DNA of 24,000 bases from Oceanococcus sp. (GTDB lineage Bacteria; Pseudomonadota; Gammaproteobacteria; Nevskiales; Oceanococcaceae), in assembly GCA_041625325.1 (NCBI GenBank), contig JBFJTN010000007.1:15425-39424 (forward strand), read 5' to 3'. The notes under the pieces are model-generated. The model did not search any database. It was given only the letters and a program-made list of their open reading frames with translations, and had not been told where the DNA came from. Each line of letters starts with the position of its first letter. Within the stretch, counting starts at the first letter, position 1. The translations under genes were made by a program, and so were the position numbers. Below, piece by piece: positions 12,078 through 15,586 of the stretch.

Positions 12078-12659
12078 TTACACGCCATTTGTACTTTTTC
12101 TTTCGGCCGTGAACACGTAAACGAGTAGCGATACGCCCATTGCCAGAATAAAACCGAGCAAATAGCCGGCGTAACTCTTCACGCCCACCTCGAAAGGAAA
12201 CACCGAACGATAGACTGTTTCACCGTCTCTGGCCGTCAGCATGCCAATGTACCAGCCGGCTTCGTCGAACTCATGGGAAAAGGTCAGACTGCCCCTGGGA
12301 TACTTGCTATAGGGCAGATTGACCAAGGTATTCCGCTCGATATCGTCTTCGTCGCCAAGATCGTCGTAGGTTCCACTCGCGCCGAGCCCGTTGACATCCT
12401 TGAGCACTCGAAACTCGACATCCATGCCTCGCAATCGACGCTCTATAAAATCCACTACGATAATGGCTTTGCCAAGCTCCGGAATGTCTTCACAGAATTC
12501 CTGAGTGGCGCGCGCTTCCGGTTGATAGCCGGTGAAATGCGCTCGCATTCCTCCGATATTCATGACACAAGTGTCATCCTCCACCGACACGCCTCCGTGC
12601 CCGGAAGCTGCGTGGGTGAACACGAGGGCGAGCAACGCGAAGAAAGACCGACGAGGCAT
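12078..12659 (-). CDS. CuMMO operon fourth gene: secreted domain plus C-terminal TM anchor (PmoD/AmoD-position, PmoD-like topology)
   Basis: The ATG at 12659 shares one nucleotide with the pmoB-like TGA (TGATG), indicating translational coupling. Signal peptide MPRRSFFALLALVFTHAASG/HGG. Cys/Met/His cluster DDTCVMNIGGMRAH, with a second Cys 25 residues later (EFCED). C-terminal helix YLLGFILAMGVSLLVYVF. Homology to PmoD was not verifiable by eye. Confidence 0.6.
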   Translation of the reverse strand: MPRRSFFALLALVFTHAASGHGGVSVEDDTCVMNIGGMRAHFTGYQPEARATQEFCEDIPELGKAIIVVDFIERRLRGMDVEFRVLKDVNGLGASGTYDDLGDEDDIERNTLVNLPYSKYPRGSLTFSHEFDEAGWYIGMLTARDGETVYRSVFPFEVGVKSYAGYLLGFILAMGVSLLVYVFTAERKSTNGV

Positions 12660-13891
12660 CAACCGAACACCGGAATCATGGGTCCGCCAAACTCGACCAG
12701 GTAACGTTGCCCCTTATCGTCGAAGAAGTGCAGGAGACCCGCAACCACGGCATCGGGGGAAGCGATCATCGTCGTCATACGCTCTGTCTCCCACAGCGCG
12801 TCGTCGGCATATATGGTGATGCGTTTCGTTTCGCCAGGCCCAATCGGCCCACCCTCCACTCTCAGAGCTTCAGCAGCCACCAAGTCGTGGCTGTCCCGGG
12901 GCTGGACATCCAGCACTTCACTGTTGATGAAGCGCAGGTTGCCCGCAGCGAATTCCCCAATGCGTAGCGGTCTGTCGCCCTGATTTGTAATATCAAATTC
13001 CACCTTGAAGCTACGGCCGGGAATGCGATACCGGGCCTCTTTTACTGAAAGCACGATCGGTGGCGAATTCAAAGGCGCCTTGGGACTATCGACTTTCCCC
13101 GTCTGCAGGGGCGTTGTAATCGGCCAGGTTTCTTGCGCATACATATATCCTCCGACGATCAAAGTCAGAGTAAGCACCAGATAGATGCCACCGATGCGCC
13201 TGTCAGCCGGAGTAAGAATCTCGTCGGCCTTCGCCGGCCCCAGTTCCGCAACATCACGAAACCTAGGCACAATGATCGGGCACTTGGTCAGCCAGTAAAC
13301 GAACCAGCTGAGGCCAACTGCGAACCAGAGAAACGACCAGAATTTGACGTTACCCCAGCCATAGGTCTCCAGATCAATGGTCTTTCCTAGCAGCGTTTCT
13401 GCCGTGTTGGAGAATTCCTCGTTGCCATTGACAACCTCGACCCAGAGGCCTGGCCCAATAATCGGACCCGTGCCTTTGACATTGATGACAGGATGCACGT
13501 GATAGCGCCCTGCTTTTCGTGCACGCATCCGAATCTCGTAATCGTAGAGATGACCGGCCTTGAACGACGTGGATCTAATCATCGGCACGCCGTTGACCCG
13601 CGAATCGAGGCGCACGAAGCTGGGCCCCGGCACCCCAATGTTGAGAAATGAGGTCCCTTCGATGCTTTCGACGTGGTGGGGCCAGAATTTGGATGGCATG
13701 AACTTGCCGCTTACCACGAGTTCCTCGTTGATCGCCAACTTGGTCGTGGAAACGTTCAAATCTATCCAGTGCACCGTACGCATCCTCAGCTGAGGCATCT
13801 GCGCACGTTCGCCATGCGCGAAAACGTACTCCGGAAATGTGATCATCAGCAGCAGGAGGAACCAGATGCCTGTCAGTTTGCTTTTCCGCAT
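12659..13891 (-). CDS. pmoB: copper membrane monooxygenase subunit B (PmoB/AmoB family)
   Basis: 410 aa. Signal peptide ..FPEYVFA/HGERAQ leaves an N-terminal His (His-brace). TVHW lies 15 residues later and GRYHVHP supplies the HxH pair. Two central TM helices (FWSFLWFAVGLSWFVYWL, IGGIYLVLTLTLIVGGYMY) sit between two beta-rich domains. RBS AGGGAG precedes ATG 13891, 9 nt after the pmoA stop. Confidence 0.9.
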   Translation of the reverse strand: MRKSKLTGIWFLLLLMITFPEYVFAHGERAQMPQLRMRTVHWIDLNVSTTKLAINEELVVSGKFMPSKFWPHHVESIEGTSFLNIGVPGPSFVRLDSRVNGVPMIRSTSFKAGHLYDYEIRMRARKAGRYHVHPVINVKGTGPIIGPGLWVEVVNGNEEFSNTAETLLGKTIDLETYGWGNVKFWSFLWFAVGLSWFVYWLTKCPIIVPRFRDVAELGPAKADEILTPADRRIGGIYLVLTLTLIVGGYMYAQETWPITTPLQTGKVDSPKAPLNSPPIVLSVKEARYRIPGRSFKVEFDITNQGDRPLRIGEFAAGNLRFINSEVLDVQPRDSHDLVAAEALRVEGGPIGPGETKRITIYADDALWETERMTTMIASPDAVVAGLLHFFDDKGQRYLVEFGGPMIPVFG

Positions 13892-13900
13892 GATTGCTCC

Positions 13901-14665
13901 CTATACGATTTTGCGGATCCAAATGGCTTTGGCCCCTAATGATCCAATCCAAACCCAGAACCAGTAGTTAAGAATATTGAGGAACCCCGCGAAAACCGCG
14001 GTGAGCGGGGTGACCGCTTCACCGAATGTTCTCAGGGTCGATTCTTCAATGATTCTCACGTACTCGGGAATTGCGGTCCGAATGTACTCGTACCCCATCA
14101 AATCGGCGACGGTCACCATGGTTCCATGCATTTCCAGAGGTACCTGAAACGGTGCCAGGAGAGGCCAGTTCAACGGGTATATCAAAAGACCGAAAGCAAA
14201 GCCCCCGAAGAGCCCGGTCCAGAAGAAACTGCGCGTGAGAAGCAGCATGCAATCCAACAGCAGTCCTAGCCCGATATAAGTCGAAGGCCAGACGAAATTC
14301 ATCGGGAAATCGGCGAACAGATGGAAATTGAGATATCGGCTGACCCAGGCTGCGGCGGTCAGGCACAAAATGGTGAGCGTTCCACCCAGCGGAAGCCGCA
14401 GACGATCCCAGAGCAGATATCCGAAAACGCCAGGCAGTACGGTGAGCGCCAAGGGGGTGACGAGTGGCCACCAGCGACGATCTCTCCAGTCGACCCAGTA
14501 ATCCCAGTCTCCGACCAGCAGGGCAAAGTGAAAGCTGAATATTCCTGCGAACAGCAGCACCACAAGCGGAATTGCAAGCAGGTCGACCTGGACGAAGAGC
14601 TTTCTCTGCTCCTGAGCTGAAGTCAGACCGTAAGGGGCCGAATCAGATTGAGTGAGATCAGACAT
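13901..14665 (-). CDS. pmoA: copper membrane monooxygenase subunit A (PmoA/AmoA family)
   Basis: 254 aa. Hallmark segments LLVGDWDYWVDWRDRRWWP and YIRTAIPEYVRIIEESTLRTFG. Multiple TM helices. Confidence 0.92.
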   Translation of the reverse strand: MSDLTQSDSAPYGLTSAQEQRKLFVQVDLLAIPLVVLLFAGIFSFHFALLVGDWDYWVDWRDRRWWPLVTPLALTVLPGVFGYLLWDRLRLPLGGTLTILCLTAAAWVSRYLNFHLFADFPMNFVWPSTYIGLGLLLDCMLLLTRSFFWTGLFGGFAFGLLIYPLNWPLLAPFQVPLEMHGTMVTVADLMGYEYIRTAIPEYVRIIEESTLRTFGEAVTPLTAVFAGFLNILNYWFWVWIGSLGAKAIWIRKIV

Positions 14666-14734
14666 GAGTTAACGATTCCGTCAGGCAGCCGCCAGCCACC
14701 CAATCAGGGCAGCTCAATTAGGGAACGGCTCGGT

Positions 14735-14772
14735 AAAAAAAGGAAGGGCACACGGAAACCGCATGTGTGCCC
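14735..14772 (-). terminator. intrinsic-terminator-like hairpin plus U-tract between pmoC and pmoA (attenuator or RNA-stability element)
   Basis: Minus strand reads GGGCACAC-atgcggtttcc-GTGTGCCC-TTCCTTTTTTTACC. The stem is 8 bp and GC-rich (14765-14772 / 14746-14753), the loop is 11 nt, and the T-run is the A7 at 14735-14741 on the + strand. It lies about 35 nt after the pmoC stop and about 70 nt before the pmoA ATG. Confidence 0.5.
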
Positions 14773-14806
14773 CTCCCTCGGGGGAGAACGCTAGATACCT
14801 TGGCGA

Positions 14807-15586
14807 TCAGCCATGAGATCCAGCGAGGGGCTTCGAACCGAGTTCAGGACTGGCGTCGCTTCCGACGACGCGACTGAGTTCAGTAATCCTACGGAGCATC
14901 TGAACCAACAGCCCTCCAGCCGCAAAGGCAGACCAACCGAGAAGTACGAACCCCCAGTGTATGGGTGCTGCGAAGAGTTCTTCCGCATAGAAGAAGGTAT
15001 GCCCCCACTCATTCAGGCCAAGGTTCGGCATGATCATGACCGGCCCTGCCACCACCAAAGCGAATGAAACGGAAATTCGATTTGCAAACTCCGGCAACCT
15101 GGTACGCGCATACACGAATGAAGTCATCGCGCTGATGATGAAGCACGGAATACCGAAGTAGAAAAGGACGATGTGAGTCGGCGTGAAATCCGTGTCCCTG
15201 ACCGTCACCTGATGCCACGCGGCATCGGCCTCGGTGAAGGGTGATGCCACAAGGTAGGCGATCAGCCCGAACATCAGTACCAGACTGAGCAGCACCAGAT
15301 ATCGACGTAGCTCTTCCGCCGGTTTCAGAGCATCCAGATTTTTGTCACGTGTCCAGTACAGCCAGCCAGCAATGCCGGCTCCGATCGCAGTGAGCACGGG
15401 CAGCTGAATGTAAAGAAGAGTCATCCAGTATTTCTGGAATTCCGGCGAAAAATAGTCGAGCCCGACAGTGAAAGAAGTCGCATGCTGATAAATGCGATAC
15501 ATCCCGAACACAACCCCGACGAAAAGTACCGCCATGAAAAATTTTGCCCAGGGTGCGCCTGGTGATTGGTAGTTCGTTTCAGACAT
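14807..15586 (-). CDS. pmoC: copper membrane monooxygenase subunit C (PmoC/AmoC family)
   Basis: The track ORF starts at 15673. ATG 15586 ([13 protein letters not shown]..) is preferred, with AGGAGA 7 nt upstream, giving 259 aa. Motifs: [34 protein letters not shown] (D-x3-H-x12-H), [22 protein letters not shown] (N-x3-H-x13-H). Confidence 0.92.
   Translation of the reverse strand: [259 protein letters not shown]

Follow-up and report, generated by a model that had tools for sequence, protein, structure and literature searches.

Several copper membrane monooxygenases (CuMMOs) of the branch considered here have been described. The enzyme of Solimonas aquatica is labelled 'unknown function' in published trees (Khadka et al. 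2018, PMC6215863), Rhodoferax and Polaromonas hosts of related enzymes are called 'alkane-utilizing' in the title of Rochman et al. (2020, ISME J 14:714), and Nevskiales MAGs with CuMMOs of the clade were catalogued in 2026 (PMC13603553). The locus closest to ours is the annotated but unstudied xmoCABD operon of the cultured Oceanococcus atlanticus 22II-S10r2 (GCA_002088235.1, AQQV01000002.1), a species isolated from an oil-degrading enrichment and able to degrade hexadecane and octacosane (PMC9872600). The hydrocarbon context proposed in the initial annotation of our locus agrees with this host lineage of aerobic oil-degrading heterotrophs (Oceanococcus).

The operon in the window (the whole 24,000-nt stretch of DNA analyzed) belongs to this already catalogued branch of alkane-associated CuMMOs and is not a new system. 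The novelty initially claimed for it did not hold, since clade members had been reported or catalogued in S. aquatica, Rhodoferax/Polaromonas, and Nevskiales MAGs, and the type strain of O. atlanticus has a close orthologue of the operon, with 92% identity in PmoA, 83% in PmoC, 81% in PmoB, and 74% in PmoD. Both loci share the order RND | DUF1329-DUF1302-BNR-MerR-xmoC-A-B-D. Beyond xmoD, the O. atlanticus locus continues with an integrase fragment or a transposase, and that of the window with TetR and FadL genes and a multicopper oxidase (MCO) module; the beta-oxidation cluster lies on the other side of the locus.

The xmoCABD operon and its putative expression signals

The locus is an intact CuMMO operon with all three subunits at full length. 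All four genes were found on the minus strand where they had initially been placed: xmoC (14807-15586; 259 aa, subunit C with the CuC and CuD ligands), xmoA (13901-14665; 254 aa, subunit A), xmoB (12659-13891; 410 aa, subunit B with a signal peptide and the CuB site), and xmoD (12078-12662). XmoC matched Pfam AmoC (E=1.3e-78, profile positions 19-242 of 245), XmoA matched AMO (E=3.1e-80, 3-236 of 238), and XmoB matched Monooxygenase_B (E=4.9e-117, 1-380 of 380). No Rfam families were found in the window.

The longest xmoC ORF begins at TTG 15673. This start was rejected because the TTG is part of a promoter-like site ahead of xmoC (TTGACT-17-TACAGT; 15645-15673, minus strand), where it falls in the -35 hexamer. 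Instead, xmoC starts with the ATG at 15586, which has an AGGAG ribosome-binding site 8 nt upstream; the gene callers chose the same codon, so the end coordinate 15586 of the initial annotation is right. By the consensus scan alone, the promoter-like site was not above the chance count; in the alignment with O. atlanticus, conservation extends to its -35 and -10 positions and to the region of promoter and ribosome-binding site.

That conservation speaks against regarding the operon as a passenger, acquired recently, poorly expressed, and without a role in the hydrocarbon metabolism of its host. A passenger would fit the transposase or integrase fragment after the O. atlanticus operon, the IS elements nearby, and the gene order downstream of xmoD, which differs completely between close relatives. 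However, three Oceanococcus-group genomes have kept all four genes intact although the proteins diverge by 8-26%, and the GC content of the operon is uniform with its flanks, which makes this explanation quite improbable.

Copper ligands and placement of the enzyme

Ligand positions were read from HMMER alignments to solved pMMO chains. D-x3-H-x12-H of XmoC aligns with D129/H133/H146 of Methylocystis PmoC (3rfr_C), equivalent to D156/H160/H173 of Methylococcus capsulatus Bath, and the CuD ligands N-x3-H-x13-H are kept in the same alignment. In XmoB, VFA/HGE aligns with Bath PmoB H33, giving an N-terminal His after signal cleavage, while TVHW aligns with H48 and YHVHP with H137/H139. The ligand sets of CuB (N-terminal His and HxH of XmoB), CuC, and CuD (XmoC) are complete. 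All peptides quoted in the initial annotation are present in the translations, and every ligand position that it named aligns with solved pMMO.

The window enzyme shows 38-44% identity with pMMO, AMO, and Pxm references and 69-92% with Nevskiales and Burkholderiales homologues; for XmoA, the values are 92% with O. atlanticus, 86-89% with Nevskiales MAGs, 69-70% with Rhodoferax/Polaromonas, and 39-44% with pMMO/Pxm/Hmo references. Trees were distance-based with few reference anchors (one AMO; no Haliea, Nocardioides, or Cycloclasticus): neighbour-joining of PmoB grouped the window with nine Nevskiales sequences and Nevskiales with Burkholderiales (bootstrap 100/100 each), and in the PmoA tree the window subclade received 92/100 and the split of all 80 environmental loci from the pMMO/Pxm/Hmo references 98/100. 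Judged from these sequence comparisons, the enzyme belongs to a Nevskiales/Burkholderiales CuMMO clade distinct from the pMMO, AMO, and Pxm references, as expected from the earlier view that it is of neither methanotroph nor nitrifier type.

Such identities and placement argue against a cryptic enzyme for methane or ammonia, whether it were to support growth or to act co-metabolically. This activity would be consistent with the conservation of all pMMO and AMO copper ligands, with the promiscuity of CuMMOs described in the literature, and with the only NCBIfam pMMO/AMO equivalog model passed, AmoB_BACT (500 vs. a cut-off of 336), but the remaining five of the six models stayed below their cut-offs. 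As had been annotated, no match to the methanol dehydrogenase (PQQ) and hydroxylamine oxidoreductase (multihaem) families was found among the scanned ORFs of the 24-kb window, nor were these genes seen in roughly 10 kb beyond its left end. The relatives of the host are heterotrophic oil degraders, and we regard a methane or ammonia function as highly improbable.

XmoD and the copper module

The start of xmoD overlaps the xmoB stop; the gene is translationally coupled to xmoB and encodes a PmoD-family copper protein (193-194 aa, periplasmic, with a predicted C-terminal membrane helix). A Pfam/NCBIfam profile search of the 194-aa ORF gave no match, and residues 31-159 matched the solved PmoD 6CPD (E=5e-12). 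The XmoD motif C-x9-H...C is kept in most of the clade homologues examined, while C-x7-M-x-H, the CuA-forming motif of PmoD (Fisher 2018), was seen in none of them.

The most widely conserved partners of xmoD are the MCO and cupredoxin genes: 25 of 65 genome loci have the module immediately after xmoD, and 58 of 59 metagenome loci have the cupredoxin next after the MCO. The window module (7106-9701, plus strand) consists of a two-domain MCO (7106-8650, Pfam Cu-oxidase domains), a secreted protein of 142-149 aa (8647/8668-9096), and an MCO-domain-like cupredoxin (9093/9141-9701). The MCO matches the two-domain MCOs PDB 2zwn and 3g5w (E about 1e-34), and no ligand of its complete T1 and trinuclear sets varies across 30 homologues. 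In the window, the module is detached from xmoD and inverted; the MCO and cupredoxin genes were missing from the initial list of neighbours.

Gene neighbourhood and the probable substrate

Directly upstream of xmoC, as in the closest relatives, lies a MerR-family regulator gene (15813-16586, minus strand; 257 aa, no cysteine; Pfam MerR_1), 73% identical to that of O. atlanticus. Its homologues (38-56%) occur up to about 4 kb upstream of xmoC in nine Nevskiales loci and downstream in one more. Then come, on the same strand and assigned by Pfam, a BNR/Ycf48-like protein (16617-17591), a DUF1302 outer-membrane protein (17622-20165/20219), and a DUF1329 LolA-like protein (20222-21577), together an AmeABC-like envelope set by comparison with published work on AmeABCD and on Pseudomonas. 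Divergent from DUF1329, the 5' part of an RND/MMPL-type transporter gene (21795-24000, plus strand) runs as an open frame off the window end; its O. atlanticus orthologue is 89% identical, with MMPL/ACR_tran domains.

On the other side, a TetR-family gene (11459-12052, plus strand; Pfam TetR_N and TetR_C_33) is convergent with xmoD, and a FadL/TodX-family outer-membrane channel for hydrophobic compounds is encoded at 9897-11393 (minus strand; Pfam Toluene_X, E=6.6e-17). Two 4HBT-fold thioesterase genes (5965-6899, plus strand; Pfam 4HBT) are divergent from a minus-strand operon (561-5830) for an OMP (5027-5818/5830), a GMC/AlkJ-like dehydrogenase (3383-5008), an acyl-CoA ligase (1733-3358), a SOI-family 4-TM protein of 156 aa (1270-1740; precomputed Pfam PF26512), and an enoyl-CoA hydratase (ECH, 561-1262); the operon was annotated with Pfam and NCBIfam.

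The accessory modules listed in the initial annotation held up in part. The AlkJ-like GMC dehydrogenase and the acyl-CoA ligase recur, but no FadL homologue was found near xmo in any other locus examined, and no relative has TetR at the window position, O. atlanticus included in both cases; the sole other TetR homologue is 28% identical and about 9 kb away in locus L015. The two thioesterases, crotonase, and OMP are near xmo in no other species examined, and thioesterases-OMP-GMC-SOI-ECH form a separate conserved module on a 7.5-kb metagenome contig (L095) showing no xmo genes. The accessory combination is therefore largely an accident of the arrangement of the window genome.

Recurrent xmo neighbours are the GMC dehydrogenase gene (often with aldehyde dehydrogenase and acyl-CoA ligase genes), MerR, and the PmoD-MCO-cupredoxin module. 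GMC homologues (65-70%) lie near xmo in Burkholderiales and Sinimarinibacterium, accompanied in Polaromonas by aldehyde dehydrogenase, acyl-CoA ligase, and PQQ alcohol dehydrogenase, and in Sinimarinibacterium by two aldehyde dehydrogenases and a wax-ester synthase. The aldehyde dehydrogenase-GMC-ligase cassette also occurs where no CuMMO is encoded, on plasmid 2 of Polaromonas JS666; its neighbours there are a cytochrome P450, an FAD oxidoreductase, and a PQQ dehydrogenase.

We consider it probable that XmoCAB and XmoD form a functional hydrocarbon-type system of the Nevskiales/Burkholderiales clade, acting as an alkane hydroxylase in an Oceanococcus-like marine oil degrader. A membrane trimer like that of pMMO would hydroxylate the hydrocarbon at its PmoC copper site, drawing on O2 and on reducing equivalents, probably quinol. 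The substrate would be not methane or ammonia but an n-alkane, in keeping with the nearest relatives studied most probably short and volatile (C2 to about C5); the sister Rhodoferax/Polaromonas have reportedly been linked to ethane and propane. GMC (AlkJ-like) and other dehydrogenases would then oxidize the alcohol, and the acyl-CoA ligase would activate the acid for beta-oxidation, while XmoD and the nearby MCO-cupredoxin pair may handle periplasmic copper for the enzyme. The steps from alkane through alcohol and aldehyde to acyl-CoA are drawn from the GMC, aldehyde dehydrogenase, acyl-CoA ligase, and PQQ alcohol dehydrogenase genes beside xmo in relatives. Against this reading, the window GMC operon lies 7 kb from xmoD, behind unrelated genes. 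Against the short chain length, the relatives on which it is based are only 69-70% identical in PmoA, and medium and long chains are the more typical range both of GMC/AlkJ-type dehydrogenases and of acyl-CoA ligases of this class.

The growth of O. atlanticus, known on C16 and C28 and not on gases (PMC9872600), likewise counts against a short chain. It would suit a reading that builds on the initial annotation, which suggested a hydrophobic hydrocarbon of possibly longer chain: longer or bulkier hydrophobic hydrocarbons (n-alkanes of at least C6, alicyclics, terpenoids) delivered and handled by FadL and an AmeABCD-like envelope system. C5 and cycloalkane substrates have been proposed for CuMMOs of other clades (PMC12510462; bioRxiv 10.1101/2022.11.07.515388). 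The DUF1329-DUF1302-BNR set is co-directional with MerR-xmoCABD, two O. atlanticus genomes repeat this order and orientation, and the block is partly present in Panacagrimonas and Stagnimonas xmo loci; AmeABCD relatives serve monoterpene metabolism according to the literature. The FadL/TodX channel adjoining the xmo region, the wax-ester synthase of Sinimarinibacterium, and the cassette shared with a P450 system point the same way. However, DUF1302/DUF1329 clusters are common in hydrocarbon degraders, so their adjacency to xmo may be incidental, and FadL and TetR lie near xmo in none of the other species compared. Moreover, one O. atlanticus genome has, a few kb from xmo, a P450-ferredoxin-AraC cluster, arranged as is usual for medium-chain CYP153 alkane hydroxylases, which suggests a division of labour. 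To our knowledge, no CuMMO has been demonstrated on substrates above C4, and we find the longer-chain proposal unlikely, though deserving some weight.

The SOI-family protein raised another possibility, that of a mainly alkene-epoxidizing enzyme as in Haliea, whose epoxide would be isomerized to the aldehyde and converted via the acid to acyl-CoA. CuMMOs epoxidize alkenes, and ethylene-assimilating Haliea carry one, as known from the literature. WRRAHLGALIN (His-x5-Asn) of the 1270-1740 protein aligns with WARAHSGPALN of solved styrene oxide isomerases, its His and Asn presumably being the haem His and the catalytic Asn, and in Sinimarinibacterium an SOI-like gene stands beside GMC, next to xmoCABD. 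Yet the match to NCBIfam StyC is weak (41 bits vs. a cut-off of 150; PDB E values 0.04-0.07), the gene is 10 kb from xmo in the window, absent near xmo in 78 of 80 loci, and found with GMC and ECH on the xmo-free contig mentioned above. No CoM or glutathione epoxide pathway is present, and the protein could instead be a haem membrane partner of the GMC dehydrogenase. An epoxidase is accordingly a quite improbable main function.

Comparison with known systems

The window enzyme resembles the pMMOs (M. capsulatus Bath, M. alcaliphilum 20Z, Methylocystis) and the bacterial AMOs (PDB 9leg, 9pxf, 9cl6) in its three-subunit build, in the CAB order of its genes, and in every ligand of CuB, CuC, and CuD; many pmo and amo operons also have, like the window operon, a downstream gene for a PmoD homologue. 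The pMMOs and AMOs differ in identity (38-42%), in forming separate clades, with most equivalog models below cut-offs, and in the C1 or N pathway genes, which are lacking nearby in the window. The actinobacterial HmoCAB (Mycolicibacterium chubuense NBB4) and Rhodococcus sp. ZPP CuMMO are likewise non-methane hydrocarbon CuMMOs with an AMP-binding ligase nearby, but are only 26-28% (PmoB) and 39-40% (PmoA) identical; tblastn detected no PmoD homologue at their loci, where hmoB is followed instead by small hypothetical genes. Marine gammaproteobacterial pHMOs (Cycloclasticus-like Thiotrichaceae, Porticoccaceae B045/Reddybacter, Macondimonas) belong to the same broad radiation (PmoA 50-61%) and have xmoD downstream, yet they form separate subclades, and many keep directly behind xmoD the MCO-cupredoxin pair that is displaced in the window.

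The Rhodoferax/Polaromonas and S. aquatica CuMMOs fall into the same clade as the window enzyme (PmoB bootstrap 100), at 69-75% PmoA identity. The betaproteobacterial loci add aldehyde dehydrogenase and PQQ alcohol dehydrogenase genes and are without the MerR, AmeABC-like, and MCO neighbours of the window. All these loci share with the window the xmoCABD order, a PmoD of the C-x9-H class, and a GMC dehydrogenase (65-67% identical) and acyl-CoA ligase nearby, in hosts that are neither methanotrophs nor nitrifiers.

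The xmoCABD Operon and Its Copper Ligands

The initial annotation described four consecutive minus-strand genes of a copper membrane monooxygenase (CuMMO), and all four were confirmed at the positions claimed for them. The products of xmoC (14807-15586), xmoA (13901-14665) and xmoB (12659-13891) matched near-complete profiles of the Pfam families AmoC (PF04896, E=1.3e-78), AMO (PF02461, E=3.1e-80) and Monooxygenase_B (PF04744, E=4.9e-117), respectively. The fourth ORF, xmoD (12078-12662), whose ATG overlaps the stop codon of xmoB, gave no Pfam or NCBIfam match and resembled the solved periplasmic domain of PmoD (6CPD, E=5e-12). 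Residue-by-residue alignments with the solved pMMO chains demonstrated that every ligand previously named is conserved: XmoC keeps the D/H/H (CuC) and N/H/H (CuD) sets, and XmoB keeps the CuB set (the N-terminal His exposed by cleavage between VFA and HGE and the HxH pair) as well as the His at +15. Judged by the full-length family matches of C, A and B and by these ligands, the predicted enzyme is a member of the CuMMO superfamily.

The putative XmoD protein has the features of the PmoD/AmoD/AmoE family, namely two cysteines, a predicted C-terminal membrane helix and a location beside a CuMMO operon. Both cysteines are conserved across the clade homologues examined, and the sequence shows a hydrophobic segment at the C-terminus. 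The CuA-forming PmoD motif C-x7-M-x-H...C (motif classes according to Fisher 2018) is not present in XmoD, which has C-x6-M-x2-H; the clade homologues examined have C-x9-H...C with no Met at +8.

The true start of xmoC is the ATG at 15586, provided with an AGGAG ribosome-binding site, and the TTG opening the longest xmoC ORF belongs to a promoter-like site as its -35 hexamer; the -35 and -10 positions of this site are kept in Oceanococcus atlanticus. Promoter and terminator scans of the window by themselves scored no higher than the shuffled background, and Rfam gave no match in the window. An inverted repeat CACTAT..ATAGT (15690-15730, minus strand) lies just 5' of this -35 hexamer and is also kept in O. 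atlanticus, with a differing spacer; the MerR-family regulator encoded next to it may use this repeat as its operator. A MerR regulator precedes xmoC in approximately 10 Nevskiales loci. The role of a CueR-type copper sensor was rejected for the window regulator because it contains no cysteine.

Placement of the Enzyme among CuMMOs

In a collection of 5.8 billion proteins, the closest PmoA homologues came from Nevskiales (Panacagrimonas, Sinimarinibacterium, Solimonas aquatica and Nevskia; 72-86% identity), followed by Hydrogenophaga (69%). When one genome per GTDB species was scanned, 80 related loci were obtained, with identities of 72-89% in Nevskiales, 69-70% in Rhodoferax and Polaromonas and 50-61% in the marine Macondimonas, Thiotrichaceae and Porticoccaceae. 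The scan missed O. atlanticus despite its 92% identical PmoA with both search patterns, so a genome missing from it may still carry the operon; this relative was found solely via the cluster membership of the DUF1329 protein, of which the window version is 89% identical to the O. atlanticus counterpart. Window proteins also occur in a 42-kb NCBI contig and several Logan metagenome assemblies. Identity to the solved pMMO/AMO chains, Methylomagnum PxmABC and Mycolicibacterium NBB4 HmoCAB amounted to 26-44%.

Distance-based trees with few anchors were constructed for PmoB (one AMO anchor, 9leg_B) and PmoA (no AMO anchor). In the neighbor-joining PmoB tree, the window sequence grouped with nine Nevskiales sequences (bootstrap 100/100), and Nevskiales and Burkholderiales came together with the same support, so by this distance method the clade including Solimonas, Panacagrimonas, Rhodoferax and Polaromonas is monophyletic. 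In the PmoA tree, the window subclade was recovered at 92/100 and the exact Nevskiales-plus-Burkholderiales grouping at 34/100 only; the split between all 80 environmental loci and the pMMO, Pxm and Hmo references had 98/100 support.

Five of the six NCBIfam pMMO/AMO equivalog models scored below their cut-offs for the window proteins. A canonical methanotroph pMMO was rejected on TIGR03080 (256 vs 318), TIGR03078 (252 vs 281) and TIGR03079 (378 vs 395), and in the trees the window sequence did not fall among the references Bath, 20Z and Rockwell. Bacterial AMO was rejected on AmoA_BACT (274 vs 290) and AmoC_BACT (296 vs 319), AmoB_BACT alone exceeding its cut-off (500 vs 336); PmoB is 38% identical to the AMO chain 9leg_B and was placed outside it. 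Taken together, the trees, the identities and the models below cut-off mean that PmoA and PmoB do not nest within methanotroph or nitrifier clades; such nesting was what the initial annotation had named as refuting its reading. By these sequence measures the enzyme is neither a canonical pMMO nor an AMO.

The source genome was inspected over about 34 kb, comprising the window and some 10 kb adjoining it on the left. Neither part contained genes for methanol dehydrogenase or C1 assimilation, and the window contains no multihaem gene; the earlier statement that the 24 kb lack methanol dehydrogenase and hydroxylamine oxidoreductase holds, nothing resembling either having appeared among the family matches. 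Cryptic oxidation of methane or ammonia by this enzyme appears highly improbable.

Conserved and Incidental Neighbors of xmo

All window proteins were searched against the 80 related loci. None of the other species in this set had FadL, the thioesterases or the crotonase near xmo. For the outer membrane protein (OMP) and for TetR, one locus each encoded a weak homologue (37% and 28% identity, respectively), some 9-10 kb away from xmo. The view that FadL, TetR, the thioesterases and the crotonase are accessory modules of the monooxygenase is thus not upheld by their conservation. The thioesterases, OMP, GMC dehydrogenase, SOI-like protein and crotonase constitute a conserved module of their own, which recurs on a 7.5-kb metagenome contig showing no xmo genes.

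In Sinimarinibacterium, Rhodoferax, Polaromonas, Hydrogenophaga and Acidovorax, proteins 65-70% identical to the window GMC (AlkJ-like) dehydrogenase, whose gene belongs to the operon at 561-5830 (minus strand), are encoded within 4-6 kb of xmo. The Polaromonas gene is part of an aldehyde dehydrogenase-GMC-acyl-CoA ligase operon, with a PQQ alcohol dehydrogenase 3' of xmoD, and the Sinimarinibacterium gene is accompanied by those of two aldehyde dehydrogenases and a wax-ester synthase. The window GMC and acyl-CoA ligase are candidate AlkJ- and AlkK-type enzymes: they exceed the cut-offs of the family models PRK02106 (630 vs 605) and PRK06187 (551 vs 476), respectively, and homologues occur in alkane cassettes. 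On plasmid 2 of Polaromonas sp. JS666 (L180, 53201-68799), an aldehyde dehydrogenase-GMC-acyl-CoA ligase cassette, its GMC 64-67% identical to that of the window, lies beside a cytochrome P450, an FAD oxidoreductase and a PQQ dehydrogenase, and CuMMO genes are absent from the cassette region. In another Polaromonas (L030), the same type of cassette adjoins xmoCABD. This apparent exchange suggests that P450 and CuMMO are interchangeable hydroxylase front ends of one alkane pathway. The pairing of one alcohol-to-acyl-CoA cassette with either P450 or CuMMO is consistent with an alkane-hydroxylase role.

The 156-aa four-TM protein encoded at 1270-1740 (minus strand) was assigned to the styrene-oxide-isomerase (SOI) family by a precomputed Pfam match (PF26512), with no match in the local Pfam copy. 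Its H-x5-N motif is conserved, the NCBIfam StyC score is 41 vs the cut-off of 150, and PDB matches are weak (E values of 0.04-0.07). The protein is rare, with only two other homologues among the 5.8 billion proteins. Its gene sits within the GMC-ligase-crotonase operon, a homologue is found on a short metagenome contig (L095, 5356-5877), and a distant homologue adjoins the GMC gene next to xmoCABD in Sinimarinibacterium (L015, 17436-18047). The protein may act as an epoxide isomerase or, alternatively, serve the GMC dehydrogenase as a haem membrane partner. The predicted membership in the SOI family would suit an alkene epoxidase working with an SOI-like isomerase, but the similarity to StyC is weak and the linkage of the gene is to GMC, not xmo, and we regard this role of the monooxygenase as improbable.

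A PmoD-MCO-Cupredoxin Copper Module

The initial annotation did not mention a copper module on the plus strand (7106-9701), which encodes a two-domain multicopper oxidase (MCO) and an MCO-like cupredoxin. The MCO best resembles the two-domain oxidases 2zwn and 3g5w (E ~1e-34), its type-1 and trinuclear ligands are invariant across 30 homologues, and these share a conserved N-terminal extension, D-x-D-x-D-x-D-x-D. The cupredoxin keeps a type-1-like motif, H-C-D...H. The pair lies directly 3' of xmoD in 25 of the 65 genome loci with enough downstream sequence; in the window it is detached from xmoD and inverted, and it is also found in Sinimarinibacterium (L015, 12630-15273).

The association was also examined in reverse, using 80 metagenome loci found via the MCO (L097-L176). 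Cupredoxin followed the MCO in 58 of 59 loci, a near-obligate pair, and a PmoD-like gene was usually located 5' of it. The idea of a dedicated CuMMO redox partner was weakened, as xmoB was upstream in just 11 of the 54 loci with enough upstream sequence. With PmoD as the usual neighbor and xmoB a less frequent one, the conserved unit is PmoD-MCO-cupredoxin, which in some loci is attached to xmoCAB. Fisher et al. 2018 had already noted that PmoD homologues occur near MCO genes; no paper describing the MCO-cupredoxin pair for hydrocarbon-type CuMMOs was found. The simplest inference is that the module would handle periplasmic copper for the monooxygenase.

Between the MCO and cupredoxin genes, the window encodes a small secreted protein (8647-9096, plus strand) with an HWHLYLDGE motif and a faint DUF4399 match only. 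Its sole homologue (48%) was found in Sinimarinibacterium (L015), and elsewhere the MCO and cupredoxin genes mostly follow each other directly.

Predicted Function and Substrate Range

Oxidation of methane, ammonia and short alkanes begins with a step that CuMMOs control. Within the Nevskiales/Burkholderiales clade, the window enzyme is probably an alkane hydroxylase. If it works as pMMO does, this membrane-bound copper enzyme would activate O2 at the PmoC copper site, and the alcohol product would then be oxidized and activated by the GMC, aldehyde dehydrogenase and ligase enzymes. Considering the relatives and the conserved alcohol, aldehyde and acyl-CoA genes, we infer that the clade probably oxidizes ethane, propane or other alkanes, not methane or ammonia; by analogy with the nearest studied relatives, short volatile alkanes are most probably the substrates. 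That the operon is a silent passenger gene set, contributing nothing to hydrocarbon oxidation, seems improbable as well.

Long-chain or bulky substrates, proposed at the outset, appear unlikely, though several observations speak for them: the conserved co-directional envelope genes, the wax-ester synthase neighboring xmo, the P450 cassette swap and the growth of the host on C16 and C28. Against them, FadL beside xmo is not conserved, and one O. atlanticus genome has a P450-ferredoxin-AraC cluster nearby, about 5 kb from the RND/xmo block (L177, 3018-5960). Medium-chain CYP153 alkane hydroxylases are usually arranged in this way. The AmeABCD-like envelope set is present in Oceanococcus and in a small number of loci from Panacagrimonas and Stagnimonas.

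It is likewise doubtful that the Oceanococcus/Nevskiales CuMMO acts, together with the conserved upstream DUF1329-DUF1302-BNR/RND envelope system, on non-gaseous hydrophobic hydrocarbons (n-alkanes of at least C5, alicyclics/terpenoids, or alkenes via the SOI-like isomerase). If true, this would extend the CuMMO substrate range well past the demonstrated C1-C4, and activity on alkanes of at least C5 would change the reading of pmoA-like genes in oil-impacted metagenomes. We know of no established rule that relates the pocket residues of a CuMMO to the chain length of its substrate. For CuMMOs of other marine clades, C5 and cycloalkane substrates were hypothesized earlier (PMC12510462; bioRxiv 10.1101/2022.11.07.515388).

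The DNA immediately left of the window (L089, 7359-14927) carries an esterase-like gene, four acyl-CoA dehydrogenase genes, an SDR gene, two MaoC-type hydratase genes and an SCP-x-type thiolase gene, a set resembling side-chain/branched-acyl beta-oxidation clusters and orthologous (78-90%) to the one adjoining the RND gene in O. atlanticus (L178, 911-4980). In O. atlanticus, an IS3-type transposase or phage-integrase fragment lies 3' of xmoCABD (L177, 19523-20634; L178, 19806-20420), and an IS element interrupts the adjacent beta-oxidation cluster (L178, 5570-6660). The region looks like a rearranging hydrocarbon island.

Comparison with Known CuMMOs

CuMMOs of this clade were reportedly tied to alkane-utilizing Betaproteobacteria by Rochman et al. 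in 2020. The Solimonas aquatica enzyme has been listed as of 'unknown function' since 2018 (PMC6215863), and members of the clade were named among widespread orphan CuMMOs (PMC8630023) and catalogued in Nevskiales MAGs in 2026 (PMC13603553). The locus is therefore not a new kind of system, and the novelty claimed for it was not sustained. Its value lies mainly in pointing to a cultured test organism and in the truly conserved partner genes: the MerR regulator, the GMC-aldehyde dehydrogenase-ligase cassette and PmoD-MCO-cupredoxin could be separated from the incidental FadL, TetR and thioesterases.

O. atlanticus, which came from an oil-degrading enrichment, is an aerobic heterotroph able to degrade hexadecane and octacosane (PMC9872600). 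Both its available genomes, including that of the type strain 22II-S10r2, contain the same block as the window, RND next to DUF1329-DUF1302-BNR-MerR-xmoCABD. This shared block and the aerobic, oil-degrading lifestyle justify the original label of a non-methanotroph, non-nitrifier, hydrocarbon context. The orphan Nevskiales clade is now tied to a cultured oil-degrading marine isolate, a host in which the substrate range is directly testable. With identities of 92% for PmoA, 83% for PmoC, 81% for PmoB and 74% for PmoD, a close orthologue of the window operon is already present in an annotated cultured species.
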